Source of the DNA: Chthoniobacterales bacterium
GTDB lineage: Bacteria; Verrucomicrobiota; Verrucomicrobiia; Chthoniobacterales; UBA10450
Direction: 5' to 3'
Assembly (NCBI GenBank): GCA_038198605.1
Contig: JBBPZS010000125.1
Coordinates: forward strand, 19,362 to 83,361
Length of the DNA: 64,000 bases
A model generated the notes under the pieces. It did not search any database, was not told where the DNA came from, and saw only the letters and a program-made list of their open reading frames with translations. The position numbers and the translations under genes are program-made. This document shows, one piece after another, positions 209 through 62,392 of this stretch. The stretch's first letter is position 1. Each line of letters starts with the position of its first letter.

Positions 209-565
209 ATGTTTAACTTTGAAAAGCTCGAGGTTTGGCAAAAGGCGATTGATTTCGCCGATTTGGTCTACGTAACAACCAAACGGTTTCCCGCCGACGA
301 GCGTTTTGGCCTAACGAACCAAATGCGTCGGGCGGCGGTTTCGATTTCGTCGAATGTCGCGGAAGGTTGTTCGCGCAGCTCAAAGCCGGATTTCGCGCGT
401 TTCGTCGAAATCACCACCGGCTCCGTCTTCGAAGTCGTTTCGCAAGCGTTCATTGGGCTTCGCCAACAGTTTCTCGACGAAGACGCATTTCAGCGCTTGT
501 ACCAAGCTGCCGAAGAACAAAGCAAGATGCTGAGCGGCCTGCGCAAATCCCTTCTTTCTTCCTAG
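209..565 (+). CDS. four-helix-bundle protein, 23S rRNA intervening-sequence protein family
   Basis: 118 aa with family-typical motifs: F..L.VWQKA near the N-terminus, RRAAVSISSNVAEG, and GSVFEV. It is paralogous to 48520-48873 and to the pseudogene at 43282-43931. Confidence 0.85.
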   Translation: MFNFEKLEVWQKAIDFADLVYVTTKRFPADERFGLTNQMRRAAVSISSNVAEGCSRSSKPDFARFVEITTGSVFEVVSQAFIGLRQQFLDEDAFQRLYQAAEEQSKMLSGLRKSLLSS

Positions 566-580
566 CACCCGACCAATGAT

Positions 581-605
581 TCTCTCAGCTTTCAACTCTC
601 AACTC
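581..605. repeat. right inverted repeat bracketing the four-helix-bundle gene
   Basis: tctctcagctttcaactctcaactc is the reverse-complement partner of 160-184. It ends 5 nt before the sdhB ATG. Confidence 0.8.
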
Positions 606-610
606 TCAAC

Positions 611-1366
611 ATGAACTTTTCCCTCCGGATCTGGCGTCAACCGGCGCGCGATGCGAAAGGCAAACTCGAGGAATACGAGGTGCGCGATATTTCGCCTGCG
701 ACCTCCTTCCTCGAGATGCTCGACATCCTGAACGAACAGCTCACGACCGGTCAAAAAGAGCCGATCGCGTTCGATTCCGATTGCCGGGAAGGCATCTGCG
801 GCACTTGTAGCCTAACGATCAACGGGGAAGCGCACGGACCCTCGCATCCCGCCGCGGCTTGTCAGCTTTACATGCGCCAGTTCAAGGATGGCGAAACGAT
901 CACGGTCGAGCCGTTCCGGGCCCGATCTTTCCCGATCGTGAAAGATCTCGTCATCAATCGCTCCGCCCTCGACCGCATCGTTCAGGCCGGCGGGTTCGTT
1001 AGTGCCCGCACCGGTTCCGCGCCGGAAGCGAACGCGATCCCGGTGCCGAAGCACGACGCCGATCTCGCCATGGAAGCGGCCGCCTGCATTGGTTGCGGCG
1101 CCTGCGCAGCGGCCTGCCCGAACGCTTCTGCCATGCTCTTCACTTCCGCGAAAATTTCCCACCTTGCCCTCCTCCCGCAGGGGAAGCCGGAGCGTTCGCG
1201 TCGCGTTCTCCGCATGGTCCGGCAAATGGATGAGGAAGGTTTCGGCAACTGCACTAACACCTACGAGTGCGAAGCGGTTTGCCCGGCCGAGATCAGCGCC
1301 AGTTTCATCGGGAAAATGAACCGCGAGTATGCCATCGCCAGCTTGCGCGAGCGCATCGGCGAATAG
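611..1366 (+). CDS. sdhB: succinate dehydrogenase/fumarate reductase iron-sulfur subunit
   Basis: 251 aa with 2Fe-2S (CREGICGTC), 4Fe-4S (CIGCGACAAACP) and 3Fe-4S (CTNTYECEAVCP) cysteine motifs. Confidence 0.9.
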   Translation: MNFSLRIWRQPARDAKGKLEEYEVRDISPATSFLEMLDILNEQLTTGQKEPIAFDSDCREGICGTCSLTINGEAHGPSHPAAACQLYMRQFKDGETITVEPFRARSFPIVKDLVINRSALDRIVQAGGFVSARTGSAPEANAIPVPKHDADLAMEAAACIGCGACAAACPNASAMLFTSAKISHLALLPQGKPERSRRVLRMVRQMDEEGFGNCTNTYECEAVCPAEISASFIGKMNREYAIASLRERIGE

Positions 1367-1382
1367 GCGCGCCCGGTTTGCC

Positions 1383-2762
1383 CTAACGAATCTCCACGGG
1401 AGGAGCAATCCCTTCTCGCGCCGCCTCCCGCCAGCGCACGATTTCCACCCCGCTGATGCAAAACATGACCCAGGCTACGCCTTCCACCATCGCGATCAGG
1501 GCATCGCTCAGGAGCGTCACCTCGAGATAGAGACTGCTCAGCGTGATAAGCAAAACGAGCAGGACGGTTGCCGAGATGACAAAGACACGCCAAGGCCAGC
1601 GCTCCAGCGTGCGCACGAGCACAAAGGCCAGCGTGCCGTAAACGACCGTGCTCGTCATCAGGTCGCCATCGAGCGGGCCCAGCGTCGCGCCGTGGCCGAA
1701 GTGCGGGCGCCCGCCGGCAAAAATAAGCTTCAAAATAAAATCGAGCACTACCCCGCCGGGCGCGGCGATCAGCACCAGGCGAAGACGATGCCGGTTGTGC
1801 CGGCCGAGCAGGACCGCGAGTAAAAAAAGCGCGACCAGCCAATAGGCCGAGCCGAGATGCGCCATCAACTTCATCACCGGGCTCATCGGTCCGCCGGAGT
1901 GGTGCGCAAACCATTGCACCACGTCCAGGTCCGCCGCCAGAAACCAGCTGCGCGTGCCGATCCTTTCGAGCAAACCGCCAAAGATCGCCACCGCCGCGAG
2001 CAGGAGAAAAACTCCGATCGTGAGATGGATGCCGAGATAACCATCGGGCGAGAGCCGCTGTTGCAGCCAGTCGATCTGGCGCGCGAAGCGGAGCCGCAGC
2101 CTAACGACCCAGGGCCGGGCGCAGAATTGCCGCCACCATTCCCGAATCTCCAGCTCGCGACTCGTGATGCCGCGCCAGAGCACGATCGTCACCACCACCA
2201 TCGCGCCGAGGATTGCCCCGATCACACCCGCGCGGCCGATCCAGCGATCGACCAGGTGCCAGCTCTGGCCAAAGACATAACCGACCAGGGAGAAAATCGT
2301 CGCCCACAGCACACAGCCGATGGCGTTGAAAATAAGAAAGCGCACGTAAGGCAGCCGCGCCGCGCCGGCGAAGAACGGCATCAGCGCGCGCCCGACATGC
2401 AGGAAATGCGCGAAGAGCACGCTCAATCCGCCATAGCGCAGAAAGAATGCGTCCATCCGGTCGAGTCGTTCCGGCCGGAGCCAGAATTTCTCGCCATGCA
2501 GCCGCAACCAATCGCGCCCGAGCCGGCGGCCAAACTCGTAGCCGATGCTATCCCCCACGATCGCCGCACTCGCCACCACCACGATCAACACCCGCAGATC
2601 GAGCAACTCCTGGCCGGCGAGGAACCCGGCCACCATCACCATGCTTTCGCCCGGCATGAAAAAGCCGAGGAAGGCCTGGCATTCCAGCATCACGATGAGG
2701 AACACGATCACATAACCCCAGTTGTCGAGGCGCAGGATGAGATCGTTAATGTGTTGCAGCAT
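1383..2762 (-). CDS. DedA (VTT domain) fused to a PAP2-like domain, membrane protein
   Basis: 459 aa. The N-terminal half looks like a DedA/SNARE-associated domain. The C-terminal half has the PAP2 motif 1 (KLIFAGGRP), but motifs 2 and 3 are degenerate. Confidence 0.75.
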   Translation of the reverse strand: MLQHINDLILRLDNWGYVIVFLIVMLECQAFLGFFMPGESMVMVAGFLAGQELLDLRVLIVVVASAAIVGDSIGYEFGRRLGRDWLRLHGEKFWLRPERLDRMDAFFLRYGGLSVLFAHFLHVGRALMPFFAGAARLPYVRFLIFNAIGCVLWATIFSLVGYVFGQSWHLVDRWIGRAGVIGAILGAMVVVTIVLWRGITSRELEIREWWRQFCARPWVVRLRLRFARQIDWLQQRLSPDGYLGIHLTIGVFLLLAAVAIFGGLLERIGTRSWFLAADLDVVQWFAHHSGGPMSPVMKLMAHLGSAYWLVALFLLAVLLGRHNRHRLRLVLIAAPGGVVLDFILKLIFAGGRPHFGHGATLGPLDGDLMTSTVVYGTLAFVLVRTLERWPWRVFVISATVLLVLLITLSSLYLEVTLLSDALIAMVEGVAWVMFCISGVEIVRWREAAREGIAPPVEIR

Positions 2763-2846: not shown

Positions 2847-2926
2847 CCGCAGAGGACGCCGAGGACGCAGAGCGGCGGTGGAAAGCCAGCCTCTCGCCCT
2901 CGTTCCCAAGCTCCAGCTTGGGAACG
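2847..2926. repeat. left flank of the RAYT unit: outer inverted repeat (2847-2872) plus REP hairpin (2901-2926)
   Basis: ccgcagaggacgccgaggacgcagag matches the reverse complement of 3635-3660 at 25 of 26 positions. cgttcccaagctccagcttgggaacg is a self-complementary hairpin. Confidence 0.8.
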
Positions 2927-2964
2927 CACTTGTCTTGGAAGCTCTGCTTCCCCACTCTCGGCCC

Positions 2965-3495: not shown

Positions 3496-3532
3496 GCGGT
3501 TCAAGACGAAGCTGGAGCTTCGCGGACATCTG

Positions 3533-3660
3533 CGTTGCCAAGCTGGAGCTTGGGAACGAGGGTTGCGCCTGAGAACGAGGAGGCGCGCCGGGGAAAAACC
3601 TGGATGCGCCTGAAATCAAAATCCCCATTTCCCACTCTGCGTCCTCTGCGTCCTCTGCGG
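3533..3660. repeat. right flank of the RAYT unit: REP hairpin (3533-3558) plus outer inverted repeat (3635-3660)
   Basis: cgttgccaagctggagcttgggaacg hairpin, and ctctgcgtcctctgcgtcctctgcgg as partner of 2847-2872. Confidence 0.8.
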
Positions 3661-3722: not shown

Positions 3723-4766
3723 ATGCTTCAGACTGCGACTCGTGCCGGCTCCTCTTCCTCCAAAGAAGGTCCGCCGCACCCGCGCTACCTCGAGGCATTT
3801 CGCTGGATGCTCCAGACCCGCATCCTTGAAGAAAAGCTGACCAGTCTCTATCGCGGCGGCCTGATCACGGGCGGCGTCTATGTCGGTCGTGGGCAGGAGG
3901 CGGTGAGCACGGCTTGCGGTTTATTTTTGCAAAAGGGCGATGTCTTTGGGCCGCTCATTCGCGACCAGGCGGGACGCGCCGCCGCGGGCGAGCCGCTGCT
4001 GAATGTCACGCGCACTTATCTGGGCTCGCGCGAGGGCTCGATGCGCGGGCGCGACGGCAATATTCACCGCGGCTGGCCCGAGACCGGGCAGATCGCGATG
4101 ATCAGTCACCTCGGATCGCTCATCCCGGTCGTGGTCGGCAAGCTGATGGCGAAACGGATGAAAGGGGAGAAAAATTTCGTTGGCCTAACGACGATCGGCG
4201 AAGGCGGGATGCAGACCGGTGCGACGCACGAGGGGATGAATATCGCGGCGGTGGAGAAGGCGCCGTTCGTCCTGGTGGCGTCGAATAATCACTTTGCTTA
4301 TTCGACCCAAAACGATCGCCAATTTGCCTGCGCCAAACTGGTTGATCGGGCGAAAGCTTACGGTTACGAAGGGCATGAAATCGATGGCACAAAGCTGGCC
4401 GACTGCCTCGAAGTAATCGGCGGCGCGGTGGAACGGGCGCGCAAAGGCGGTCCGCCGCAACTGGTCGTGGCGTCGCTTCTACGACTGGCGGGACATGGCG
4501 AGCACGATGACGCCAGCTATGTGCCGCCGGAGATGAAGAAGGAACCGTGGGCGCAGGATTGCGTGCTCGCGACTGAGAAATTGATCAGTGAAAACGGCTG
4601 GCTCGATACCGCGACCTTGAAGCAATGGCGCGCGGAACTTTCTGCGGAAGTAGGGAAGGCAGTCGATACCGCGCAGCGCGAAGCGGCCCCGGTGGCGAGC
4701 GAAGAAGATTGGTGCGCAATGGCGACGCGCGGAATGGTGGACTCGCCCGCGCTGGCGCGGGAATAA
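3723..4766 (+). CDS. 2-oxoacid dehydrogenase E1 component, alpha subunit (TPP-dependent)
   Basis: 347 aa with a TPP-binding region (GEGGMQTGATHEGMNIAA...NNHFAYST). It is followed by E1 beta and E2. The start codon is uncertain. Confidence 0.85.
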   Translation: MLQTATRAGSSSSKEGPPHPRYLEAFRWMLQTRILEEKLTSLYRGGLITGGVYVGRGQEAVSTACGLFLQKGDVFGPLIRDQAGRAAAGEPLLNVTRTYLGSREGSMRGRDGNIHRGWPETGQIAMISHLGSLIPVVVGKLMAKRMKGEKNFVGLTTIGEGGMQTGATHEGMNIAAVEKAPFVLVASNNHFAYSTQNDRQFACAKLVDRAKAYGYEGHEIDGTKLADCLEVIGGAVERARKGGPPQLVVASLLRLAGHGEHDDASYVPPEMKKEPWAQDCVLATEKLISENGWLDTATLKQWRAELSAEVGKAVDTAQREAAPVASEEDWCAMATRGMVDSPALARE

Positions 4767-4930: not shown

Positions 4931-5899
4931 ATGAGCGTTACGTACCTCGAAGCGATCCGCGAGGCGCAGGCGTATCTCTTGCGCGAGGACGAGCGCGTCT
5001 ATCTCTACGGACAGGATATTGCCGGGAAATTCGGCGGAGCGTTCAAGGCGACGAAAGGATTGGCGGAGAAATTTCCCGGCCGGGTCCTAAATACGCCGAT
5101 CAGCGAAGACGCGATGGTCGGCACCGCGATCGGCGCGGCGATGGAAGGGATGCGGCCGATCGTGGAGATGCAGTTCGCCGATTTCTCCAGCATTGCGTTG
5201 AACCAGATTCTGAATAACGCCGGCACCCAGTATTTCCGGACGAATATCCCCTGCCCGATCACGGTGCGGCTGCCGAGCGGCGGAACGAAGGGCAGCGGGC
5301 CGTTTCACAGTCAGAGCATGGAGGCGATTTACTCGCATTATCCCGGCTTGGTCGTGGTCACGCCCGCGACGGTGGAAGACGCCTACACGATGTTGATCGA
5401 TGCGGTCGCGATCGATGACCCGGTCGTTTACTGCGAACACAAGTATCTTTATTACCACCTCAAAGCCGACGCCCTGCCGAAAGACCGGCTACCGATCGGG
5501 AAGGCGCGTATCGTTAGGCCAGGTCGCGACCTGAGCATCGTGACCTACAGCGCGATGGTGCACGAGGCGCTCGCGGTGGCGAAGGAATTCAGCGCCAACG
5601 GCGTCGAGATCGAAGTGGTCGATCTGCGCAGTATCAAGCCGCTCGATACCGGGACCGTGCTCGCCTCCGTTGCGCGCACGGGGCGGCTGCTCTGCGTGGG
5701 CGAGTCGTTTCCCTGGGGCGGTGCGACGGCGGAAGTGATCGCGCGCGTCGCGCCGGAAGGTTTTCATCTCCTCGATGCGGCGCCGGCGCGGATCAACGCC
5801 AAGGACACGCCGATTCCTTATCATCCCAATCTCTGGACAGAGCATCGCCCGAACGCGAAATCGATCGCCGCGCAGGCGCGCCGGATTTTAGCCGAATGA
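4931..5899 (+). CDS. 2-oxoacid dehydrogenase E1 component, beta subunit
   Basis: 322 aa with a transketolase-like pyrimidine-binding and C-terminal domain pattern (NTPISEDAMVG, EMQFADF). Confidence 0.9.
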   Translation: MSVTYLEAIREAQAYLLREDERVYLYGQDIAGKFGGAFKATKGLAEKFPGRVLNTPISEDAMVGTAIGAAMEGMRPIVEMQFADFSSIALNQILNNAGTQYFRTNIPCPITVRLPSGGTKGSGPFHSQSMEAIYSHYPGLVVVTPATVEDAYTMLIDAVAIDDPVVYCEHKYLYYHLKADALPKDRLPIGKARIVRPGRDLSIVTYSAMVHEALAVAKEFSANGVEIEVVDLRSIKPLDTGTVLASVARTGRLLCVGESFPWGGATAEVIARVAPEGFHLLDAAPARINAKDTPIPYHPNLWTEHRPNAKSIAAQARRILAE

Positions 5900-6038: not shown

Positions 6039-7304
6039 ATGCCGAAAATCCCAATCACTATGCCACAGCTCGGCGAATCGATGGCCGAGGCCACGATCGT
6101 CGCGATCAAGGTTCAGCCCGGAGATAAGGTCGCGGCCGACCAGGAGATCATCGAAGTCGAGACGGACAAGGCGGTCATGGGCGTGACCACGCCGTGCCCC
6201 GGCGAGATCGCGAAGATCGATGCAGAAGTGAAAGGCGTGTATGCGGTCGGCGCCGTGCTCGGCTATATCGAGGCGAGCGAAGCAGACGCAGCGCGCTTTA
6301 CTAAAAACGCGCCAGCACCTCCGCAGGGCGAAGTAGCGGAGGAGATTCCAGGTCGCGAAGAGGAATCAGCCAAGGCGGCGAAAACGCAAAACGGCAGCGG
6401 CTCCCATTTTCAGGTGGACGAAACGAGCCTGCCGCAGGTGGACTCGTATTCCCAGGCGGATAAAGCCGGCGGCCTGCCGGTGCCGGCGGGAGCGAAAGGC
6501 GCGGGCTATCTTTCACCGCGAGTGAAGGCGCGGATGGCCGAATTGAAACTGACGCAGGCCGATCTCGCAGCCGTCCAAGGAAGCGGCAATGCCGGGCGGG
6601 TGACGATCAAGGACTTGGAAACATTTCTCGGCAGCCTGGACAAACAAACGGCAGAAGACGCGAGCGCGATTCGCACCGGCGTGGCCGATGCAATGCGGCG
6701 GAGCTGGACGCGCCCGCTCGCGACGGTGGGCCTGTCGGTTTGTCTAGACCCGGTGCTGGAAGATCGCAGAAAACGCGATCCGAAACCGGGCCCGGCCCTG
6801 TATGTTTTGCGCGCGCTGGCTTTGGCGCTCGCGGAAACGCCGGCCGCGGCTGCACGATTAATCGGCAACCGCGCTTTGCGTTCGGAATCGATCGACATCG
6901 GCGTCGCTGTGGAAGCGCAGGACGGCATCATGGTTCCGGTCATTCGCGGCGCAGACAAGACTTCACTTGCTGACCTAACGAGTCGCTACACCGAGCTAGT
7001 CGACCTCGCGCGCCGGCGGCGCGTGACCGCGGAGATGACCGCGGGCGGCATCGCATCCGTTTCAAACTTCGGCACCTTTGGGCTGGACTGGGGCACGCCC
7101 ATTCCCCTGCCCGATCAGACGCTTCTCCTCGGCCTCGGCGCGGGAAAAAAAGCGCCCACCTGGAGCGAGGAGAAAATGCAGTTCGTGCCGACGACGCAGG
7201 CTGAACTCACCCTCAGCTTCGATCACCGCAGCCTCGACGGCGGGGGCGCCGGTCGGCTGCTGCAGCGCGTAACCGAGCTACTCGGCACGCCAGACAAGCT
7301 CTAG
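6039..7304 (+). CDS. dihydrolipoamide acyltransferase (E2)
   Basis: Lipoyl domain (EVETDKAVMGV), E3-binding domain, and catalytic DHRSLDGG. Start is taken at MPKIPITMPQLGESM because the upstream 32 codons are REP sequence. Confidence 0.9.
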   Translation: MPKIPITMPQLGESMAEATIVAIKVQPGDKVAADQEIIEVETDKAVMGVTTPCPGEIAKIDAEVKGVYAVGAVLGYIEASEADAARFTKNAPAPPQGEVAEEIPGREEESAKAAKTQNGSGSHFQVDETSLPQVDSYSQADKAGGLPVPAGAKGAGYLSPRVKARMAELKLTQADLAAVQGSGNAGRVTIKDLETFLGSLDKQTAEDASAIRTGVADAMRRSWTRPLATVGLSVCLDPVLEDRRKRDPKPGPALYVLRALALALAETPAAAARLIGNRALRSESIDIGVAVEAQDGIMVPVIRGADKTSLADLTSRYTELVDLARRRRVTAEMTAGGIASVSNFGTFGLDWGTPIPLPDQTLLLGLGAGKKAPTWSEEKMQFVPTTQAELTLSFDHRSLDGGGAGRLLQRVTELLGTPDKL

Positions 7305-7529: not shown

Positions 7530-8084
7530 ATGAATTCCACTCCGACGATTGATCCCGCGATCCGCATGGATGAGCTGCTCGAGCAGTATCCCGGCGCTCA
7601 ACGCGCGCTTTTCCGCCGCTATCACATTGGCGGCTGCGCGAGCTGCGGCTTCAGCCCGGAGGAGACTTTGGGCGGCGTTTGCGAACGCAACGAGAACCTC
7701 GATGTCGATGAGGTCATCGAACACATCCAGACCAGTGACGCCGCTGACCGCGCGATGCAGATTGAGCCCCGCGAACTGGCTGATCGACTCGCCGCCGGCG
7801 AAACGATTCACCGCCTCGACATCCGCACCCGCGAGGAATTCGACGCCGTAAAAATCCCCGGCGCACAGCTTTTCACCCAGGAATTCATGCAGGAAATTTT
7901 GGCCAAGTGGTCACGCTCGGACCTGGTTGTCATTTACGATCATCAGGGCGCGCGCAGCATGGATGCAGCCGCTTATTTTCAAGGGCACGGCTTTGAGAAA
8001 ATCAAGAGCCTGCGCGGCGGGATCGATGCCTGGAGCGCGGAGGTGGATTCGAAATTGCCCCGCTACCACCTGGAAAACGCCTAA
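7530..8084 (+). CDS. DUF1858-like redox-disulfide domain fused to a rhodanese-like domain
   Basis: The N-terminus (YHIGGCASCGF) is typical of hybrid-cluster-associated disulfide proteins. The C-terminal half has a rhodanese fold pattern. The TAA stop lies inside a CCTAACGA motif. Confidence 0.65.
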   Translation: MNSTPTIDPAIRMDELLEQYPGAQRALFRRYHIGGCASCGFSPEETLGGVCERNENLDVDEVIEHIQTSDAADRAMQIEPRELADRLAAGETIHRLDIRTREEFDAVKIPGAQLFTQEFMQEILAKWSRSDLVVIYDHQGARSMDAAAYFQGHGFEKIKSLRGGIDAWSAEVDSKLPRYHLENA

Positions 8085-8087
8085 CGA

Positions 8088-8561: not shown

Positions 8562-8578
8562 CCTAACGAATTTTTCCC

Positions 8579-14200: not shown

Positions 14201-16495
14201 ATGAGAACCATCAGCCGCCTGTTCATTGCCGCTTCTCTGATTATCTCTTCTCATCTCGCCTTGGCTACACAGGCTGATGACACCACGATCACAATTACCG
14301 GAGACGCAGCCGGGGCGACGCCGTTCATTAGCCAGCTCACCCTCAATGCCAGCGACACAACGGTAATGAAGCGGATCCAATTCTCGATCGAACCTAAAAC
14401 TGGATCAGTCACGCGACCCCTCGCTGCCAGCTATTCAAACGAGTATTTGACGGAACGCGGCTATCTCGACTCCGCCAGCGGCGATATTTTCCTCCCGGTC
14501 TGGGGTCTCTATTCCGATTTCTCCAACACCGTCACGGTGACCTACTACTTTAACGATGGTTCGTCCAAACAAGACTCGACCACGATCTCGACCGACTCCT
14601 TCACTCATCCCTGCGACCTGGATAACCCCACCGTGCTCCAGGCGCGCACAGATACCACCACCCTTAGCTACGATTTTATGCTTGTGAAGGGCGGCTGTGG
14701 CGGCGGCTTTACTCCGGTCATCATCGATACAGATGGCGCCTTGCGCTGGGCCAGCCCGGCCGGCTTTTCCGTTATTCCAGCCACTTTCTTCGATAATGCG
14801 ATCTATCAAACCAGTGACACGTCCCTGTATCGGGTCGAGCTCGATGGTACGATCACCTTGATCCATGACTACGCCGATATCGGCGCCACCTTCCTCCATC
14901 ATAACATCGACCGCGGCAAGGTAGGACTGTTGCTGGATTTGGACACGGCCGATCAAATCGAAGCCGTCAACATAGAGGTTGATGGTGCGGGTAATGTCAT
15001 TAAGACGTGGGATCTCTCCCAGATCATCAGCGACGCGATGACCGCCGGTGGAGACGACCCGAGTCAGTTCGTCTATGCGGCGCCGACCGATTGGTTTCAC
15101 AATAACGCCACCACTTACAACCGGGCTACTGACACTTTTATTGTTTCCAGCCGGGAAAACTTTGTCGTCGGAATCGATTACGAGACTGATCAGATAAAGT
15201 GGATCCTTGGAGACACGACCAAACACTGGTATGAGTTTCCTTCCCTCGCTCAGTTTTCCCTTGATCTCGCGGCCGATACTTTGCCGCCAATCGGCCAGCA
15301 CGCTCTCTCCATCTCCTACGATCAGCATCTTCTCCTGATGGATAATGGTTATAACAGCATCTTCCAGATGCCGCAGGGTCTGAACCGTGGTTATGCCAGC
15401 CCGCGCAAGTATCGTTTGGACTTGGACTCCAACCTCGCGACGGAGGTTTGGAACTACGAAATGGACCAGACGATTCTCTCCCCGATCTGCAGCAGCGTTT
15501 ATGAAGACGCGCCGCTTAACTATGTCATCGATTATGCCTTCGTCGGAGGCTTCGCGGCCACGACACCTTTCGCGCAACTGCTGGGTCTGGATGCGGCCGG
15601 CGATAAGATTTTCTATTACCAGTACCCGACTCGTTTCTGCGACACGGCCTATAATTCGATCCCTCTCCATCTCGAGAGCATCAACTTCCCGACGGTCTCG
15701 GCGCGTAACCTCAATATCTCGACCCGCGGCAATGTCGGACCGGGGGACGACGCCCTGATTGGCGGCTTCATCGTCACCGGAACCGAACCGCAGACGATTA
15801 TCTTCCGCGCCTTGGGGCCTTCACTCGGGATGACAGTGGGAAATTCTCCCACCCTGGCCGATCCCAGCCTGACAATTTACGACTCCAACGGGGCTGAGAT
15901 TGCCAGCAACGACGATTGGGAATCCGATCCCGGCGCGACGCAGATCACTGAAGATGGTTTTGCGCCGCAGGATTCGGCCGAAGCGGCCACTGTCCAGACG
16001 CTCGATCCTGGTGCCTATACTTTTGTCGTTAGGGGGAAAGACGAAACTCCCGGCATCGCGTTGGTCGAGGCCTACGACTTATCGCCTTTGGTTGATTCCA
16101 AGCTCGCAAACATCAGCACGCGCGGCCTCGTCGGCACAGGCGACAATGTCCTGATCAGCGGCTTCATCGTTGGCGAGGTTGATAGCACAACCGTCGTCCT
16201 GCGCGCCATCGGGCCTTCGCTTGCGGCGACCGGAATCGCCGCTCCGCTGGCAGATCCGAGCCTGGAGGTCTTCGACGCTAACGGCACTTCGATCGCGACG
16301 AACGACAACTGGCAGGATGACCTAAGCGCCAGCGACATCGAACAGAACGGCTTCGCCCCGAGCGATGCCGCTGAATCCGCCACCCTGCTTCATCTGCCGG
16401 CCGGTGCCTACACCACCATCGTCAGCTCGAGCAGTGGCGCTGACACCGGCATCGGCCTGGTGGAATTTTACGACCTCCAGGCACCAGCCGACTAA
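14201..16495 (+). CDS. secreted ASST-like protein, paralog 3
   Basis: Same architecture as 11898-14174. Signal peptide followed by ATQADDTTITITG. Confidence 0.75.
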   Translation: MRTISRLFIAASLIISSHLALATQADDTTITITGDAAGATPFISQLTLNASDTTVMKRIQFSIEPKTGSVTRPLAASYSNEYLTERGYLDSASGDIFLPVWGLYSDFSNTVTVTYYFNDGSSKQDSTTISTDSFTHPCDLDNPTVLQARTDTTTLSYDFMLVKGGCGGGFTPVIIDTDGALRWASPAGFSVIPATFFDNAIYQTSDTSLYRVELDGTITLIHDYADIGATFLHHNIDRGKVGLLLDLDTADQIEAVNIEVDGAGNVIKTWDLSQIISDAMTAGGDDPSQFVYAAPTDWFHNNATTYNRATDTFIVSSRENFVVGIDYETDQIKWILGDTTKHWYEFPSLAQFSLDLAADTLPPIGQHALSISYDQHLLLMDNGYNSIFQMPQGLNRGYASPRKYRLDLDSNLATEVWNYEMDQTILSPICSSVYEDAPLNYVIDYAFVGGFAATTPFAQLLGLDAAGDKIFYYQYPTRFCDTAYNSIPLHLESINFPTVSARNLNISTRGNVGPGDDALIGGFIVTGTEPQTIIFRALGPSLGMTVGNSPTLADPSLTIYDSNGAEIASNDDWESDPGATQITEDGFAPQDSAEAATVQTLDPGAYTFVVRGKDETPGIALVEAYDLSPLVDSKLANISTRGLVGTGDNVLISGFIVGEVDSTTVVLRAIGPSLAATGIAAPLADPSLEVFDANGTSIATNDNWQDDLSASDIEQNGFAPSDAAESATLLHLPAGAYTTIVSSSSGADTGIGLVEFYDLQAPAD

Positions 16496-28158: not shown

Positions 28159-30975
<2,817 letters not shown>

Positions 30976-32758: not shown

Positions 32759-32847
32759 GGTGCCCTGCCACTAAACCTGGTCGAAGCGGTTTGGCACGGA
32801 CTTTTCCTGCCGGCCCGGTCCGACCCAGGCGCCGCCGCGGAAGCCGC

Positions 32848-41273: not shown

Positions 41274-41470
41274 TGGACCAAAGACGCCTAACGATCGCCC
41301 GGAACCGTCGGATCGCGCTCTGGCGTGCGCGATTCATCAAGAGCCTGCGCGCCTGCCCGAATATCCGGGCAGCGTGCAAGGCCGCGAACGTGTCGCCGCA
41401 AACTGTTTACCGCACAAAGCGAGACGACCCCGCTTTCGCGGCGCAGTGGCAGGATGGTAGAGAGGATTGA
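41273..41470 (+). CDS. small HTH protein resembling phage terminase small-subunit N-termini, probably 3'-truncated
   Basis: ACPNIRAACKAANVSPQTVYRTKRDDPAFAAQW. The ORF ends a few codons after the junction with the carbamoyltransferase. Confidence 0.4.
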   Translation: MDQRRLTIARNRRIALWRARFIKSLRACPNIRAACKAANVSPQTVYRTKRDDPAFAAQWQDGRED

Positions 41471-44885: not shown

Positions 44886-45830
44886 TCAGCTTTCCATTGA
44901 CGGCAGTTTGTCCCCCCATTGGAAGATCAGCCACGGCAGCCGGCGCGCGCTCCAGAAGCGCGGGATGAAGACGCGCGGCTGGGCGAGCGAACGGAAAAAC
45001 CAGCCGAGATAATATTTGTCGGCCCAATCCGGGATTCGCACCTGATCGCCGGTAAGGAATCCGATGGCGGCGCCGATGCAATGCACCGCAGGACGATAAT
45101 CGAGCTGCTCGAGGAGATACTGGCCGAGCTTGTCCTGGATTCCGCCGCCGACCGCGATGACGATGTGCTTCGGGTGAGTCTGCCTAACGAGTTCAAGCAA
45201 GGCCTCGTCCTTGACCGGCCGGCCGTATTTCGGGGCAACGTACAAACCGGAGGCCAGAGGCCGGAGGTCGGTGGTCAGCGGTGCACCCGAAGCAGTATTC
45301 CCATCATGCCTGTCCTCTATCCTCTGTTCTCTGTTCTCTGTTCTCTGCTTTCCGATCTCTGTCCTCTGTCCTCTGTCCTCTGGTCGCCCCTGTTTCAGTC
45401 CCAAATCCTCATCGGTAGGGCGAGACTCCGTCGAGCCAAGCCCTCGATCCACGGACGCGACGGCGCGCGTCCCTCCAGCGAGGAATCCTTCCAGCTTCTC
45501 GCGGGAGGTTTCGGTCGCGACAACCCAGATTACCGCGCCGGGTTGCCGGACGGATTCGTGCTCGAGCAGGCGTTTGACGTGTTCGAGCCCGGAAATGCGC
45601 GGGACGCGTTCACCGGTAAAGAATTTCCAGAGCAGGACCATGAAACCGCTGTCGGCGATCGCGATCTCAGCGCTGATCAGCGCGCGCCGGTAATCTTCGT
45701 CCCGGCAAAGATTGATCATGGAAGGCGCGGCCGGCGCGACGAGCAATCCGCCGCGGCGGGTGATCTCGTCGACCGCCTCGCGTGATGTCCCGCCGAAGAA
45801 TTCAATGCCGAGGATACGATGCGTTCGCAT
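44886..45830 (-). CDS. WecB/TagA/CpsF-family glycosyltransferase with a ~77-aa in-frame repeat-encoded insert
   Basis: Family blocks LGIEFFGG...ADSGFMVLL...IAVGGGIQDKLG...IGAAIGFLTGDQVRIPDW. The insert is at 45246-45476. Confidence 0.75.
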   Translation of the reverse strand: MRTHRILGIEFFGGTSREAVDEITRRGGLLVAPAAPSMINLCRDEDYRRALISAEIAIADSGFMVLLWKFFTGERVPRISGLEHVKRLLEHESVRQPGAVIWVVATETSREKLEGFLAGGTRAVASVDRGLGSTESRPTDEDLGLKQGRPEDRGQRTEIGKQRTENREQRIEDRHDGNTASGAPLTTDLRPLASGLYVAPKYGRPVKDEALLELVRQTHPKHIVIAVGGGIQDKLGQYLLEQLDYRPAVHCIGAAIGFLTGDQVRIPDWADKYYLGWFFRSLAQPRVFIPRFWSARRLPWLIFQWGDKLPSMES

Positions 45831-46688: not shown

Positions 46689-48503
46689 TTGAATGCCGCT
46701 GTCGCTGAACCGCCGCCTCCCGTCGTACGGCGTCGCTCCATTACTCCAGCGGTGGTTTTGCTCTTCGCCACGCTCGGCCTGCTCTGGTTTATCCTCTGCC
46801 GCGATCTCAGCCTGGAGTGGTCCTCGAACGAGCAATACAGCTACGGCTGGTTCGTCCCGTTCTTCGCCCTCTTTCTCTTTTGGCTGCGCTTCGAAGATGC
46901 GGGGCATCTTCGAAGCGGTTATCGGTTATCGGTTAATGGTTCCTTGGACTCCGCCGGGACGGCTCCCGCCATAACCAACAACCAGCAACTAATAACCATC
47001 GGCGCGATTATCGGCCTCGCGATGATCGCGCCGATCCGCCTCTTCGAATACGCCAACCCGGACTGGCGGCCGCTGAGCTGGGGGCACGTCCTCGCGGTCG
47101 TGGGTTTAACGTTATTGGTTATTGGTTATTGGGGCGGCCGAAAGGCAGTGCGGCATTTCGCCTTCCCCGTCTGCTTCATTCTCGTTGCCGTCCCATGGCT
47201 GACCCCGATCGAAGCGCCGCTCGTGCAATGGCTGATGCGCCTGGTTGCGTCCGTCGCCACGGAGACGCTGACCCTTTTCGGCATTCCCGCACAACTCGAA
47301 GGCAGCCTCATCCGGGTGAACAACGGCGTCGTCGGCGTGAGCGAAGCGTGCAGTGGTGTGCGCTCGCTCCAGACTTCGCTCATGATCGGGCTGCTCTTTG
47401 GCGAACTGAAACGCCTAACGATCGCGCGAAGGGTCGCACTCGTTGCCGCGGCGCTCACGATCGCGCTCTTCGCAAATTTCGGACGAGCTCTTTTCCTGGT
47501 CTGGATCGCCGCGACCCAAAATCTGGCCGCGGTCGAGCGCTGGCACGACATCGCGGGCTACGCGATTGTCGGCGCCGTCTTCGTCGGCACGGTGGCCCTC
47601 GCGAGCTGGCTCGCGGGGCAAGTCAGAAGTCAGAATGAAGAAGGAAGAAGCGACCAAGGGAAAGGCAAATGTCAGAAGGAAGAATTAAGAAGTTCAGCAG
47701 AGCTGACCACTGACCTCCGATCTCTAAGTCCTACCATCGCTACCAGCGGGCGACACGCCCGCCTCTACATTTTCCGGCTTCCTCCTTCTTCCTTCTTACT
47801 TCTCACTTTCAGCTGGCTTCTTTTCGTCGAAGCCGGCGTCACCACCTGGTATCGGTGGCATGAACGTAACTTCGTTCCGACAACCGCCTGGAGCGTGCGC
47901 TGGCCGGAAGATGCGCCGGGTTTTCGCGAGCTTCCGATCGCCGACAATGTTCGCACCACCCTGCGCTACGATTCCGGACGGGAAGGTGCCTGGCAGACCA
48001 TCCTCGCGACCCCGCCCGACCAGCAGCCGGCGCCGGCCACCGTAACGATGTTTTTCTTCCGCTGGGAACCAGGGTCCACAAGCATCCTGCGGGCACGAGC
48101 GCACCGGCCTGATATCTGCCTGCCGAACACCGGGTGGCGCGTGGCAAATGATGAAGGCGTGCGGTGGTATGAGGCGGCACCCGGTCTCGCCCTGCCCTTT
48201 CGCCATTTCAGCTTCGTCCGCGAGGCAACGCCCGGACGACAGGTGTTCGCGCACGCGTTTTTCTGCCAGCGGGAAGATCGCGTGCCACCGCGCGCGGCCG
48301 ATCGGTTCGATGTCACGGCCGGGGAGACCAGCGACTGGATGCGTAACGATCGCGTGCGGGTGGTGCGGGAAGGTCTGCGGAACCAGGGGCAACAGGTCAT
48401 GCAGTTAGTTCTCCTCTCCAAGCAGGAGCTCAGCGCAGAAGAAGCCCAAACCGAATTCGCCGCCCTCGTGCCGGGGCTGGTCATGTCAGAAGGCAAAAGG
48501 TAA
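46689..48503 (+). CDS. exosortase fused to an EpsI-family domain, with two repeat-encoded in-frame inserts
   Basis: Multi-TM N-terminal half with EACSGVRS (exosortase Cys motif), and a soluble C-terminal half resembling EpsI. Inserts at 46917-46999 and 47622-47805. The last 5 codons lie in repeat 48485-48522. Confidence 0.75.
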   Translation: MNAAVAEPPPPVVRRRSITPAVVLLFATLGLLWFILCRDLSLEWSSNEQYSYGWFVPFFALFLFWLRFEDAGHLRSGYRLSVNGSLDSAGTAPAITNNQQLITIGAIIGLAMIAPIRLFEYANPDWRPLSWGHVLAVVGLTLLVIGYWGGRKAVRHFAFPVCFILVAVPWLTPIEAPLVQWLMRLVASVATETLTLFGIPAQLEGSLIRVNNGVVGVSEACSGVRSLQTSLMIGLLFGELKRLTIARRVALVAAALTIALFANFGRALFLVWIAATQNLAAVERWHDIAGYAIVGAVFVGTVALASWLAGQVRSQNEEGRSDQGKGKCQKEELRSSAELTTDLRSLSPTIATSGRHARLYIFRLPPSSFLLLTFSWLLFVEAGVTTWYRWHERNFVPTTAWSVRWPEDAPGFRELPIADNVRTTLRYDSGREGAWQTILATPPDQQPAPATVTMFFFRWEPGSTSILRARAHRPDICLPNTGWRVANDEGVRWYEAAPGLALPFRHFSFVREATPGRQVFAHAFFCQREDRVPPRAADRFDVTAGETSDWMRNDRVRVVREGLRNQGQQVMQLVLLSKQELSAEEAQTEFAALVPGLVMSEGKR

Positions 48504-48943: not shown

Positions 48944-50378
48944 TTGCATTTGATCGATCCCGAGCTGGTCCAGCGTCAGCACCGGCGACGGTTGCTGCTT
49001 GGAATCGGCGGCGTTCTCGTCGTTCTCATCGTTCTCGTCCTCGTCTTCGGCCGGCCGGCGCGCCACGCGATCAAGGCCTGGCAAGCGCGACGTCATGCAG
49101 AAAAGGCATTCACCCTCATCGCCGCGGAAGAATGGAACGACGCGACCAAAGAGGCACGGAGCGCCTACCAACTCAGCACGACCGAGCCGGAGGCGGTCCG
49201 GGCCGTGGCCCGCCTGCTCTCGCGCACCCGGCAGCCACAGGCGCTCGGCTTCTGGAAAGCGCTGTGCGATGAACAGCCGCTCACGCGGGAGGACCTGCGC
49301 GACGAGGCTGCCATCGCACTCGCGGTCGGGGAAAATGGAATCGCCGGGCGTGCGGTGGAGGAGTTGTTAGGCAAAACCGAAGGCGGACCCGGCCCAGCCG
49401 ATCGGCTCCTCGCCGCCCAGCTCGCCGCGCAAAGTCGCGAGTCGGAAAAAGTGTCCGATTACCTCGCCAAGGTCGTCTCGGATCCCAAGGCGACGGAACG
49501 CCAGGTTTTCCAGGCTTCGTTGTTTCAACTCGCCGCCACCAGCGGCACCGCTCCCGGCGCCCGGGAAACGCAGGCCGCGGCCTGGAATCGTGTGACCAAG
49601 ATCGCGCGCGGAAAAACCGACGTCGCGCTCGACGCCCTGACGATTCTCGCGCAGCACGCCCTCTCCTCGCCTAACGAGATCGTTTCCGATCCCGCGATCA
49701 TGCCGGATACGGAGTTGATCCAGGCTCTCGAAGCGCACCCGCTCAGCCGCGCCGCGCAGAAACTGCTCGCGATAGACCTGCGCATTCATCTCGACCCGGA
49801 TCAAAAAGAAAATCTTATCGCGCAAGCGACCCAGACCTGGCGCAAAGCGGATAACGAATCGCTAGCCATTTTTGCGCGCTGGTTAAACGGCAAAGGCGAA
49901 TTTCAGCGCGAACTCGACACCATCCCGCTCGATAAGGCTCTGCAAACCCGCGACCTCTTTTTGCAGCGACTCGACGCGCTCGGCGCGCTCGGGAATTGGG
50001 CCGAAATCAAACGCCTGCTCCAAAATGAAACCTTCCCGCTCGATCCGGTCATCGAGCACATGTATCTGGCGCGCTGCAATCAGCAGCTCGGCGAAGTCGT
50101 CGCGGCTGAAAACAACTGGCAGCGGGCCCTGGAAGCTGCTGCCGGCGATCCGCAAAAACTTCTACCGCTGGCCGATTACCGAAAAAAACGGCGCGACGAC
50201 GACCGCCGGCGCTGCCTACGACACCGTCGCCCACGACAATCCGGCGGTGCGTCCAGCGCAGCAAGGCCGGCTCCGGTTGGCCCAGCAGAAACGCGACACC
50301 CGCCAGATGCATCGCATCCTGGCCGAAATGCTGAAGCAATGGCCTAACGACACCGCGATCCAGAACGATGTTCACCGC
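48932..50378 (+). pseudogene. membrane-anchored TPR-like repeat protein, frameshifted near 50178-50188 and 3'-truncated
   Basis: TM helix LLLGIGGVLVVLIVLVLVF followed by helical repeats. The reading frame continues in ORF 50025-50513 after ...LLPLADY. Homology style changes after ...WPNDTAIQND. Confidence 0.5.
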
Positions 50379-58029: not shown

Positions 58030-58054
58030 TCCGTGGAAGATATCATCCGCCGCG

Positions 58055-58620: not shown

Positions 58621-58656
58621 TTGCCCTGCCGACGGTCGCGGCTTAGATGTCCGCCC

Positions 58657-60540
58657 ATGCACTGCTTCCGATCGCTCATCATCGCACTCGCCCTAACGAT
58701 CCTGCCACTACCCCTGCTCGCGGCCCCTTCGCCTTCCCCGGCGGCGGCCGCTGGGGCTCCGACGCAGTCGGCCGTGCAGGACCAGGCCGATCGTTTTCTG
58801 GCGCTGGTGAACTCGAGTTATCAGGCGCTCTACAGGGTCAACAGCACCGCGCAATGGGACGCGGTGCGCGATGTCACCCCCGCACATGACGCCGCCTCGG
58901 AAGCGGCGAGCCGCGCTTACGCCGCCTTCAACGGCAACCCCGTCGTGATCAAGGAAGCGCGTGAATTGCTCACGCACAGCGCGGAACTGACGCCGCTGAG
59001 CGTGCGCGAACTGAAGCAGGTCCTGCTCAATGCCGCCGAAGGGCCGATGACGAATCCGTTCCTGGTCGAACGCCGCATTCAATCCGAGACCCGGCAGTCT
59101 TCCTTACTGAACAGCTTCCAGTTTAAACTCAACGGAAAGCCGATCACGGCGAACGAGATCGATAATCTTCTGAGCTCGAGCAGCGACCTGAAAGAGCGCA
59201 AGGCGGTCTGGGAAGCGTCGAAAGAAATCGGCAAGACGCTGAAAGAAAACCTCATGATCCTGCGCGATCTGCGCAACGGGGTCGCGGGCGAGATGAATTA
59301 TCCCGATTACTTCACCCTCCAGGTCGCGCCCTACGGCATGACGACGGACGAGATGCTGAAGATGAACGAGCAGTTCATGAAGGATCTGCGTCCGCTTTAT
59401 CTGCAACTGCACACCTGGGTGAAATACAAGCTGGCAGAGAAATACAAGCAGCCGGTCCCGGACAAGATTCCTGCGCATTGGCTGAACAATCGTTGGGCGC
59501 AGAACTGGACCGGACTGGTCGAGGCGGCGGATCTCGATCCTTATTTCAAAGGCAAAAGCGCGGAGTGGGTCGCGAAGACGGCGGAAGATTTTTATCTCGG
59601 TCTCGGGATGCAGGGGCTTCCGGGAAGTTTCTGGGTGAAATCAGATCTTTATCCGGTGCCAAAGGACAGCGCGCGGAAGAAAAACACGCATGCCTGGGCT
59701 TACCACATCGATCTCAATCTGGATATCCGCTCCCTCATGAGCATCGAGCCAAATGCGGAATGGTTTTTCACCGCGCACCACGAGCTCGGTCACGGGCACT
59801 ATTTCCTCGCTTACAGCCGTCCGGAGGTGCCGCCTCTCCTTCGCCTCGGGGCCAATCCCGGATTTCACGAAGGCATCGGCGAACTGATCTCGCTCGCCTC
59901 CAGCCAGGTCCCTTACCTGCAGGCGAAAGGAATTTTGCCTAACGATTTCAAGGCGGACAAGACCGCCTTCCTCCTCGACGACGCCCTCGCCCGCTCCATT
60001 CCGTTCATCTTTTTCGCCTCCGGCACGATGACGCACTGGGAAGCCGACATCTACGCGCATCAGCTCGAGCCGAACGACTGGAACGATCGCTGGTGGAAAT
60101 ACGTGAGCGAGTTCCAGGGCGTCGAGCCGCCGGAAAAGCGGAGCGAAGAATGGGCCGATTACGCGACCAAGACCCACGTCAACGACGCGCCGGCTTACTA
60201 TTACAACTACGCCTTTGCGACGGTGCTGAAATTTCAACTGCACGACTACATCGCGCGCAAGATTCTGCATCAGCCGCCGCAATCCTGTAACTACGACGGG
60301 AACAAGGAGGTCGGGAAATGGCTGAGCGACAACATTCTCAAAAAAGGCGGCACAGAAGACTGGCACAAAGTGTTGAAGGACGCGACCGGCGAGGACATCT
60401 CGACCCGGGCGATGGTGGATTATTTCCAGCCGCTCATGGCCTGGCTCGAGGAACAGAACAAAGGCCGCAAGATCGGCTGGGAAGCCGACAAGGAAGAGAA
60501 AGAGCGCGAGGAACGCGAACGGCGCGAGAAGAGTTCGTAG
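58657..60540 (+). CDS. peptidase family M2 (angiotensin-converting-enzyme-like peptidyl-dipeptidase), secreted
   Basis: Signal peptide [24 protein letters not shown], zinc motif HHELGH, and downstream [10 protein letters not shown]. Confidence 0.85.
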
Positions 60541-60820
60541 TTGTCGCGCGGGCGCTCGACCTCCCGCGCGCAAGCGCGCAATTGTAGGGCGGGCGCTCCG
60601 CCTGCCTCCCCGCGAGCGCGCATTTGTCGGGCGGGCGCGCCGGCTGCCATCGGGAACCAGAGGACGACACGGCGGTCGTCCCTCCAAGATGGCGGCAAGC
60701 GGAGCGCTTGCCCTACAATTTTGCGTTCGCTCGCTCGAGCCTGGAGGGGCGGGCGCCGTCCCGTCCCCGATAGGAAAAAAGGCGGACGACACGTCGAGCG
60801 TCTCCGCTAATCTTTTCCGC
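60541..60820. repeat. REP mosaic between the M2 peptidase gene and pgi
   Basis: aattgtagggcgggcgctccgcctgcc near 60580, ggcaagcggagcgcttgccctacaat near 60697, and GGACGAC...GTCGTCC hairpins. Confidence 0.8.
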
Positions 60821-62392
60821 ATGGCCAATCAATCTCTCTGGCAGCGCTTTCAAAGCTACTATCTGCGCTACGACGACCTCGGCTTTTCGCTCGACATCAG
60901 CCGGATGCGTTTTCCCGACGGCTTTCTCGAGAAGATGGAGCCGCAGGTGGCGAAAGCCTTCGCCGCCATGCGCGACCTGGAAGCAGGCGGGATCGCCAAT
61001 CCGGACGAAAACCGGATGGTCGGCCATTACTGGCTGCGCGACCCGCAGCTCGCGCCTAACGACAAGCTGCGCGCCGATGTGGAGGAGACAAACGCCCGCA
61101 TCCAGAAATTCGCTTCCGACGTGCACGGCGGCCGGATCGCCGCGCCTAACGGAAAGCCGTTCGAGCGCGTTCTGCTCATCGGGATCGGCGGCTCGGCGCT
61201 CGGGCCGCAGTTCATCGCCGATGCTCTGGGCTCGGCGGCCAATCAGATGGAGATTTCATTTTTCGACAACACCGATCCGGACGGTTTCGATCGCGTCTTT
61301 GCCAAAATCGGCGCTGGCCTCGCGCAAACGCTCTCGGTCGTCATCTCCAAGTCCGGCGGGACCAAGGAAACGCGCAACGGCATGCTGGAAGCGAAAGCGC
61401 ATTTCGAGCGGGCCGGTTTGGATTTTGGGAAACAGGCGGTGGCAGTCACCGGCGTGGGAAGCGAGCTCGATCTATTTGCGGAGAAGAACGGATGGCGGGC
61501 GCGTTTCCCGATGTTCGATTGGATTGGCGGCCGCACCTCGGTCATGAGCGCGGTCGGTCTCCTGCCCGCGGCGCTGCAAGGCCTCGACACGCAAGCGCTC
61601 CTCGCGGGAGCGGCGGCGATGGATGCGCACACGCGCGCGCCGGAGTGCGATGAAAACGCCGCCATGCTCCTCGCCCTGATGTGGTTTTACGCCGGCGACG
61701 GCCAGGGAAAGAAGGATATGGTCATTCTGCCCTACAAGGACCGGCTCGCGCTCTTCAGCAAATATCTGCAACAGCTCGTGATGGAGTCGTTAGGCAAAGA
61801 AAAGGATCTTGCCGGCAAGGTGGTGCACCAGGGGATCGCGGTTTATGGCAACAAGGGCTCGACCGACCAGCACGCCTATGTGCAGCAACTGCGCGACGGC
61901 GTGCCGAACTTTTTCGCCACCTTCATCGAGGTGCGGCAAGACCGCGCGACCGACCGTTTCGAAGTGGAGCCGGGGGTGACGAGCGGCGATTATCTGCAGG
62001 GTTTTCTGCGTGGGACCCGCGCCGCCCTTTACGAAGGCGAGCGCGACTCGATCACGCTCAGCATTCCGGAGGTGGACGCCTTTCACGTCGGCGCGCTGAT
62101 CGCGCTCTACGAACGCGCGGTCGGGTTTTACGGTTCGCTGGTGAACGTGAACGCCTACCATCAACCGGGAGTGGAGGCGGGCAAAAAGGCGGCCACGCGC
62201 ATCCTGGAACTGCAGCCGCGGGTGCTGGGCGAGCTTTCAAACTCGGGCAAAACCGCTGAGGCGATTGCCCATGCGATCGACGCCGACCCGGAAGATGTTT
62301 ACCACGTGCTGCGGCACTTGGCGGCGAACGACCCGAAAATGCAGGCAACCGGCGAGGAACCCGGGGACGAAAAATTTTCGCGGATCGGGTAG
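60821..62392 (+). CDS. pgi: glucose-6-phosphate isomerase
   Basis: [19 protein letters not shown], and [14 protein letters not shown] motifs. Start taken at MANQSLW. Confidence 0.9.

Follow-up and report, generated by a model that had tools for sequence, protein, structure and literature searches.

A strongly over-represented, lineage-specific DNA word in Chthoniobacterales (Verrucomicrobiota), a candidate signal for DNA uptake

One short DNA word, CCTAACGA, most often within the 9-mer GCCTAACGA, is scattered along a 64-kb stretch of the genome of a Chthoniobacterales bacterium (assembly GCA_038198605.1, contig JBBPZS010000125.1, positions 19,362 to 83,361; this complete stretch is called the window here). 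GCCTAACGA is a lineage-specific word of one clade of the Chthoniobacterales (Verrucomicrobiota). On balance, we think it somewhat probable that it is a DNA-uptake-type self-recognition word maintained by molecular drive, i.e., an analogue, with unrelated sequence, of the DNA uptake sequences (DUS) of Neisseriaceae and the uptake signal sequences (USS) of Pasteurellaceae.

An exact search found 39 copies of CCTAACGA in the window, 27 on the + strand and 12 on the − strand (the word is not palindromic, and its reverse complement, TCGTTAGG, was counted separately). A preliminary description of this DNA had the 27 right but listed only 11 on the − strand, having missed the one at 16026; two of its start positions were off by one (they are 39030 and 45183, not 39029 and 45184). 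One hundred dinucleotide shuffles of the window gave an expectation of 1.15 copies (standard deviation, 1.04; maximum, 4), in agreement with the one or two that had been predicted from base composition, and Markov models of order 0 to 3 gave 0.95 to 1.66. The enrichment is ca. 34-fold (24- to 41-fold), where ca. 25-fold had been estimated before. At order 4, the expectation is 4.9 and the enrichment 8-fold, this expectation being itself inflated by the motif’s own copies. No other 8-mer of the window, GC-rich words included, is as frequent as CCTAACGA, which also has the highest z-score among 8-mers at orders 2 and 4, so that the k-mer count against a Markov model, proposed earlier as a check and run here on the window, put it on top. 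GCCTAACGA is the leading 9-mer, with 29 copies versus 0.36 to 0.56 expected. The edges of the motif are sharp (CCTAACG, 43 copies; CTAACGA, 40; CCTAACGA, 39), and there is close to no information in the flanks except at positions −1 (G in 29 of the 39) and −3 (T or C). The extended logo, Y-N-G-CCTAACGA, is identical across three lineages. In the window, the 8-mer has a density of 0.61 per kb and the 9-mer one of 0.45 per kb. USS densities of 31 to 913 per Mb have been reported in Pasteurellaceae, and the former suggestion that the word is about as dense as DUS or USS was therefore appropriate. The word is also enriched in 15 related loci that belong to two genomic regions, and over its clade the density ranges from 0.2 to 1.7 per kb.

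The copies are strongly conserved in a close relative. Genomes of relatives were examined as pieces of ca. 20 kb, and one of them, the Chthoniobacterales metagenome-assembled genome L001, has a MetH protein 95% identical to that of the window, compared to 66 to 76% for other Chthoniobacterales or Verrucomicrobiota. It contains 21 copies of the word in 23 kb, with an orientation of 11:10. The two sequences align over 16.3 kb at 90.7% identity, and 18 of 19 window copies are identical in L001, versus 55% of 8-mers unchanged (P = 2e-4); all 18 aligned L001 copies are also present in the window. The identity of the motif is 98%, versus 90.8% for its flanks. Conservation in related genomes had been put forward as a check in the preliminary description, and in L001 the outcome was positive. 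The lone copy lost there is the one in a hyperdivergent DUF7305 gene. The transketolase gene (21310-23298, −) is 97 to 98% identical to that of L001 at its 5′ end, 74 to 78% in the middle, and then 94%. Since identity falls and recovers within a single gene, this mosaic structure indicates, at the level of sequence comparison, a segment imported by homologous exchange with unsampled relatives. The word at 22247 is intact in both genomes despite lying in the divergent segment.

Genes of the window were called by third-position GC content together with Pfam/NCBIfam matches. In relation to them, 20 copies are sense, 17 antisense, and 2 intergenic, and all six frames are occupied, as had been claimed for both strands and every frame. 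Depending on the frame, the encoded peptide is L-T, P-N-D/E, (L/V/I/F)-V-R, or S-L-G. Four copies (1382, 8080, 32847, and 50343) overlap stop codons; the TAA at 8082 and the TAG of minus-strand genes at 1383 and 32848 had already been noticed, and the fourth stop is at 50345. Three further copies (8562, 21314, and 41287) lie within 15 nt of a stop. Rare codons are also accommodated, the word containing 11 of the 55 CTA and 6 of the 46 TTA codons of all window genes.

For every copy, the orthologous codons were located in 86 related loci. Some 73 word-poor relatives keep the peptide A-L-T-R of transketolase site 21741 almost unchanged and spell it with more than 40 codon combinations, none of them equal to the word; the window and L001 have GCC CTA ACG AGA. 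Transketolase site 22247 encodes P-K-D in most word-poor relatives, and five of eight word-rich loci have P-N-D with the exact word; as read from these alignments, the protein is altered here (K to N) to accommodate the word. Deeper in the word-rich clade there is turnover of sites, a given one being common to two or five of the eight loci, and density is still high. What is maintained, judging from the sequences, is the DNA word rather than the peptide, because all six frames are used, rare codons are included, and orthologous peptides are spelled otherwise in relatives. The preliminary description had reached the same view.

The distribution of the word follows phylogeny. We scored 80 soil-metagenome loci around transketolase and set them on a neighbour-joining tree. 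CCTAACGA was found at 0.55 to 1.7 per kb in the clade of the window (L001, L081, L082, L083, L085, and L127), and L088 and L087 had 0.82 and 0.32 per kb, respectively; elsewhere it was absent or almost so. A large sister clade carries another word, AAGATCGACA, i.e., (A)AGATCGACA(A/T), at 0.3 to 2.3 per kb (L088, L090-L092, L095-L097, L100-L103, L105, L107-L109, L116-L121, L124, L125, L136, L138, L140, L141, L145, and L146, and also L002 and L003). The orientation of this sister word is balanced (13:12, 11:10, 8:8, and 23:27), all six frames are used (in L088), and the window has one copy only, GATCGACA. In L088 both words are interspersed, adding up to 68 in 22 kb (ca. 3 per kb). The two clade-specific words follow the transketolase tree and differ from each other at most positions. 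No word comparable to these two was found in the basal clades, where GGATGACA and ATCCCGAG are ca. 8- to 11-fold enriched in one group.

The second region examined was that of glucose-6-phosphate isomerase (PGI). Six PGI-centered loci were fetched via homologues of the window PGI (79 to 91% identity), including contigs of 1.6 and 3.6 Mb. All six carry the word, with 5 to 35 copies each, in orientations of 8:4, 5:2, 4:1, 19:16, 5:4, and 8:6. The copies at 61055 and 61787 of the window have counterparts at an equal distance from the start of PGI in L161, L163, L164, and L165 (+3 nt in L166), and blastn synteny with L161 and L162 covers both of them. Copies are densest in L164 (GCA_036490335.1), at 1.6 per kb. 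It contains a tandem array of five direct copies in 64 nt, spaced by 11 to 21 nt and directly 3′ of a stop codon, and intergenic inverted pairs, TCGTTAGGC-N7-GCCTAACGA and TCGTTAGGC-N14-GCCTAACGA, just downstream of genes. These tandem and inverted clusters of L164 are located at 3512-3565, 7080-7098, 13759-13790, and 17328-17391.

The word is scarce in some parts of the window that look variable. An island at 50370-54886, with PIN and HepT toxin genes and without synteny to two relatives, has no copies, and a 9.8-kb block of lower GC content (9229-19058), which includes a methyltransferase-domain gene and four arylsulfotransferase paralogues, has two; outside these two regions the density is ca. 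0.77 per kb, a comparison based on a small sample and on regions picked after the data had been seen. The scarcity in accessory DNA that had been described thus stands, as does the lack of any copy from 50351 to 58691, but the claim of a single copy between 8570 and 21064 has to be corrected, as there are two (16026 and 18419). The depletion is not restricted to accessory DNA, since the core genes at 54886-57891 (RRM protein, IF-1, and isocitrate dehydrogenase; 4970-7309 in L161 and 4820-7198 in L162) have no copy in any of the three genomes. In the 12 kb downstream of an integrase-like gene (polysaccharide and exosortase genes), the word has near-normal density. The four arylsulfotransferase paralogues are in tandem (10226-19058, +; 524 to 771 amino acids; GC content, 0.56 to 0.57; two word copies).

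The mechanism that we propose would work as follows. Double-stranded DNA containing the word would be bound preferentially by a DNA receptor on the cell surface, which would probably belong to a type IV pilus or pseudopilus, and fragments from close kin would then enter the cell and recombine at a higher rate than other DNA. Such an uptake bias would act as a molecular drive, with alleles carrying an intact word displacing mutated ones, and the word would accumulate wherever coding allows, in six frames, in rare codons, with amino acid changes, at stops, and at gene ends. The recombining core genome would keep the word intact, and newly acquired DNA would be without it. Sister lineages would use the other word, AAGATCGACA, in parallel to the dialects of DUS and USS. 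Taken together, the very high enrichment of a single asymmetric word in its exact form, its presence in any frame, its price in rare codons and some amino acid changes, positions conserved in close relatives but turning over at depth, near-even orientation ratios in most relatives, rarity in variable DNA, intergenic pile-ups, and a different word in a sister clade resemble what is known of DUS and USS; the mosaic transketolase and the presence of a pseudopilin cassette in the window also count in favor. We favor an uptake-type word because drive would explain both the thousands of exact sites and the word switch, which a site-by-site intracellular function hardly does.

The published properties of DUS and USS allow a comparison. 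Their dialects follow phylogeny, frames that contain stops are avoided, permissive regions are favored, and intergenic inverted repeats are frequent; about half of all DUS and USS sit in terminators, and regular spacing has been reported for USS. Like the DUS of Neisseriaceae, for which the receptor is ComP, the word described here is short and non-palindromic, is found at ca. 0.5 to 1.6 per kb on both strands, inside and outside coding DNA, has clade-specific alternatives and conserved copies, is scarce in acquired DNA, contains stops in some frames, and forms inverted pairs between genes in one dense genome, L164. However, it has no CTG core, its host belongs to the Verrucomicrobiota and not to the Betaproteobacteria, it has 8 to 9 nt versus 10 to 12 in DUS, the window copies are almost all intragenic with none in a terminator hairpin, and most positions differ between the two words, as opposed to one to three between DUS dialects. 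With USS (Hin-USS, AAGTGCGGT; Apl-USS, ACAAGCGGT) it shares a core of ca. nine bases, a mostly intragenic location in several frames that sometimes alters amino acids, a density within the known range, and clade-specific types. In contrast to USS, there is no GCGG core, the logo has no AT-rich downstream segments, one-mismatch copies are not enriched (USS are less sharp), and the orientation is skewed in the window. Having neither the CTG nor the GCGG core, the word falls outside both the DUS and the USS sequence families.

Several observations weigh against an uptake signal, the absence of these two cores being one of them. One-mismatch variants are present at the level of chance (31 versus ca. 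34 expected), so that only the exact word is enriched; that there were at least ten of them, as had been noted, is true, and their number is simply that of chance. The gap coefficient of variation of CCTAACGA is indistinguishable from random spacing (spacing of the sister word is weakly sub-random, in two of seven loci only). Window copies are mostly intragenic (only 2 of 39 intergenic), none is in a terminator-like inverted pair, and the closest opposed pair is 112 nt apart. Orientation in the window, at 27:12 (and 17:2 if the central 18 kb are set aside), departs further from parity than in USS, where it is ca. 1:1. Finally, our literature search found no uptake or transformation data for Chthoniobacterales. 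In the same search, the word itself appeared only inside primers and oligonucleotides (most subscription journals were outside the search, and an earlier report is possible), in line with the word not having been recognized earlier as a described uptake, Chi, or KOPS signal; no literature linking uptake sequences to Verrucomicrobia or Chthoniobacter was found; and, for competence or ComEC in Udaeobacter, there was no Udaeobacter paper, and a paper on ComEC evolution did not mention Verrucomicrobiota.

Among the alternatives, a rather unlikely one is a genome word of the kind of HIP1 (GCGATCGC, cyanobacteria), kept by a modification or repair system or by some intracellular function and with no role in DNA uptake. 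It could take the form of a methyltransferase with a very-short-patch-type mismatch endonuclease that turns near-matches into matches, or of a binding site for an abundant chromosome-organizing protein. HIP1 is also a hyper-abundant octamer, found in all frames and conserved past the neutral expectation, with a function not experimentally established. The lack of enrichment of one-mismatch variants would fit a correction toward the exact word, the 11-nt spacing of the tandem copies in L164 is close to a full turn of the helix, a distance at which proteins could bind cooperatively, and two typical sites of methylation, GATC and TCGA, are found within the sister word. However, HIP1 is palindromic, as are the classic targets of very-short-patch repair, and is linked to methyltransferases, whereas neither word found here is palindromic and they are swapped between sister clades, a complete switch that is hard to imagine if thousands of sites serve an intracellular function. 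The enrichment of 30- to 80-fold is beyond the modest shift in word frequencies that very-short-patch repair produces (E. coli CCWGG), and the window shows no obvious cognate DNA methyltransferase, its sole methyltransferase-domain gene (9229-9951) matching generic SAM-dependent methyltransferase domains. In a related and similarly doubtful scenario, both words would be the trace of a genome-wide “identity word” system of Chthoniobacterales and not uptake tags; a conversion, repair, or self-recognition machinery could write an asymmetric word of 9 to 10 nt across the core genome, and it could be switchable between lineages, with the possibility of two words coexisting (L088).

The strand bias had suggested a polar motif such as Chi or KOPS (FtsK-orienting polar sequences) in the preliminary description, and this comparison does not hold well, as the skew is confined to the flanks of the window and relatives are near even. 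The 27:12 bias is independent of the direction of the genes (14:7 where they are on the + strand, 10:5 where they are on the −), and it changes along the window, from 10:10 at 16 to 34 kb to 17:2 in the flanks. A Chi-like recombination hotspot or self-marker, read by RecBCD or AddAB on single-stranded DNA and co-oriented with replication, would account for a skew independent of gene strand, and the + strand, with 69% of the coding bases, may be the leading one; GC skew and strand-corrected third-codon-position GC skew have contradictory signs in different thirds of the window. Chi motifs are likewise short (5 to 8 nt), lineage-specific, over-represented in the core genome, and rarer in foreign DNA. 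We nevertheless regard this explanation as quite improbable. Orientation in relatives is near even (11:10, 10:8, 19:16, 8:6, and 5:4), the alternative word of the sister clades is strictly balanced, and intergenic tandem arrays and inverted pairs make no sense for Chi. The enrichment of 34- to 80-fold at 0.6 to 1.6 per kb is also far above that of E. coli Chi, which is found at ca. 0.2 per kb and is enriched a few-fold. Even less credible is a KOPS- or AIMS-type (architecture imparting sequences) polar motif guiding FtsK-like translocases to dif, for which only the 27:12 skew of the window speaks. Motifs of this type are more than 80 to 90% strand-skewed, and the share on one strand is 69% in the window and 50 to 60% in most relatives; nor are KOPS motifs 30-fold enriched or piled up in inverted pairs. 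We give practically no credit to the idea that dispersed repeats, one recurring peptide, or errors of assembly produced the enrichment. The window does hold a separate family that resembles repetitive extragenic palindromic (REP) elements, and no support for this explanation was found. An origin from dispersed repeats, REP elements, or miniature inverted-repeat transposable elements was ruled out because the flanks are unique, with no information beyond −3 and no conserved hairpin beyond the core. A recurrent peptide was discarded by the six frames and four different peptides, and an assembly or adapter artefact by the same copies being present at orthologous sites in independent NCBI, JGI, and ENA assemblies. 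A repeat family or a recurrent protein motif would have overturned the initial proposal, and neither applies.

The individual copies are given here with their strand, their orientation relative to the gene, and the corresponding peptide. Near the left end there are sense copies in a small open reading frame (ORF) at 212-565 (310..317, +, G-L-T-N) and in an Fe-S protein gene at 611-1366 (811..818, +, S-L-T-I). The DedA-family gene at 1383-2762 (−) has its TAG stop overlapped by 1382..1389 (+) and includes 2100..2107 (+, antisense, V-V-R-L). One copy each is found in the genes for 2-oxoacid dehydrogenase E1 alpha at 3723-4766 (4184..4191, +, sense, G-L-T-T), E1 beta at 4931-5899 (5511..5518, −, antisense, I-V-R-P), and the E2 acyltransferase at 5943-7304 (6974..6981, +, sense, D-L-T-S). 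The TAA stop of a rhodanese gene (7419-8084) is provided by 8080..8087 (+), and 8562..8569 (+) is intergenic, beginning one base past the stop of a NifU-like gene (8088-8561). The arylsulfotransferase genes at 14201-16495 and 16752-19058 contain, respectively, 16026..16033 (−, antisense, V-V-R-G) and 18419..18426 (+, sense, Y-L-T-K), the latter being the same in L001.

Further to the right, L001 also shares the copies in dnaB at 19738-21240 (21065..21072, −, antisense, L-V-R), in the final three codons of transketolase (21314..21321, +, antisense, S-L-G-stop), in a polysaccharide deacetylase-like gene at 23397-24995 (23848..23855, −, sense, P-N-E), and in an MFS transporter gene at 25482-26873 (25596..25603, +, antisense, F-V-R; 26089..26096, +, antisense, S-L-G). 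Transketolase has two more, both sense, at 21741..21748 (−, A-L-T-R, with the rare codons CTA and AGA) and 22247..22254 (−, P-N-D). Five copies are located in metH. Those at 28652..28659 (−, antisense, L-V-R), 28783..28790 (+, sense, P-N-D; retained in some distant relatives), 30298..30305 (−, antisense, S-L-G, with a rare TTA codon), and 30910..30917 (−, antisense, S-L-G) are the same in L001, and at 29173..29180 (+, sense, P-N-E) more distant relatives have other residues. A ClC chloride-channel gene (31047-32758, −) is divided between two ORFs that overlap (matching positions 6-243 and 254-346 of the Voltage_CLC profile), owing perhaps to a frameshift, to decay into a pseudogene, or to an error in sequencing. 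It holds 31499..31506 (−, sense, G-L-T-T) in the C-terminal ORF (31047-31787), 32447..32454 (+, antisense, L-V-R) in the N-terminal ORF (31637-32758), and also 31611..31618 (+, antisense, V-V-R) and 32544..32551 (+, antisense, S-L-G), all of them the same in L001.

The DUF7305 gene (32848-34290, −; 480 amino acids) has its TAG stop overlapped by 32847..32854 (+), the same in L001, and contains 34005..34012 (−, sense, G-L-T-T), the sole aligned copy missing there. It is part of a pseudopilin cassette on the − strand, with two other genes at 34290-34901 and 34898-35401; the proteins of these two have an N-terminal methylation motif, with a weak match to “Verru_Chthon cassette protein B”. No other stretch diverges as much between the window and L001 as this cassette (67 to 78% identity or unalignable, versus ca. 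93% around it). It is the one feature noticed here that bears on competence machinery or on a word-specific minor pilin of the ComP/ComN type. As a receptor for the word it is a poor and unlikely candidate, since two genomes with the same word have hyperdivergent versions of it.

At 36665-39098 there are a tRNA-Pro, a tRNA-Glu, and then the integrase-like gene (37776-39098), with a sense copy at 39030..39037 (+, P-N-E). Synteny with L001 stops at 37734, the 3′ end of the tRNA-Glu, which suggests an integrated element. The search for known RNA families in the window recovered the two tRNAs and nothing else. The remaining copies are intergenic, 14 nt past the stop of an ORF at 40386-41273 (41287..41294, +); antisense in a WecG/TagA-type glycosyltransferase gene at 44886-45830 (45183..45190, +, L-V-R); sense in an exosortase gene at 46689-48503 (47414..47421, +, R-L-T-I); sense in an ORF at 48932-50347 (49670..49677, +, P-N-E), whose TAA stop is provided by 50343..50350 (+); sense in an M2 peptidase gene, within its N-terminal hydrophobic stretch (58692..58699, +, A-L-T-I) and at 59938..59945 (+, P-N-D); and, in the PGI gene, sense at 61055..61062 (+, P-N-D) and antisense at 61787..61794 (−, S-L-G).

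The separate REP-like family has the sequence GGCA(G/A)GCGGAGCGC(C/T)(C/T)GCCCTACAAT, with a hairpin of 8-bp stem followed by CTACAAT. Its element CCCTACAA is present in 18 copies, at 46045 and 53312-61730 of the window, with related copies in L161, L165, and L166. They appear single, in tandem, or as inverted pairs, mostly intergenic and in a word-poor part of the window. A REP-associated tyrosine transposase gene is found at 2878-3495 (+; NF047646, 98.5 bits with a cut-off of 80), and this transposase likely mobilizes the REP-like element. Between isocitrate dehydrogenase and the M2 peptidase, L161 (7456-7884) and L162 (7221-7751) have a Y1_Tnp gene, and at this position the window has REP copies only.

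According to two 2025 preprints, sequence-specific DNA uptake with genome-wide tags is known only from Neisseriaceae and Pasteurellaceae. Both families are host-associated Proteobacteria, whereas the Chthoniobacterales are free-living soil Verrucomicrobiota. If the word is an uptake signal, it would represent an independent third origin in another phylum and in free-living soil bacteria; kin-biased transformation would have arisen convergently outside the Proteobacteria, and natural transformation would be suggested as a force behind gene flow in an uncultured lineage that numerous soil metagenomes have yielded. The system would also offer a natural experiment, with two unrelated words, one genome that has both, and sister clades that have none, usable for a receptor search by co-variation and for a test of molecular drive. 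DUS dialects have served to find integrative and conjugative elements in Neisseriaceae, and the word described here could be used to assign metagenomic contigs to the lineage and to flag horizontally acquired DNA, as well as to aid the design of DNA for the genetic manipulation of Chthoniobacterales. If it is not an uptake tag, the word remains an unexplained and strongly maintained feature of these genomes.

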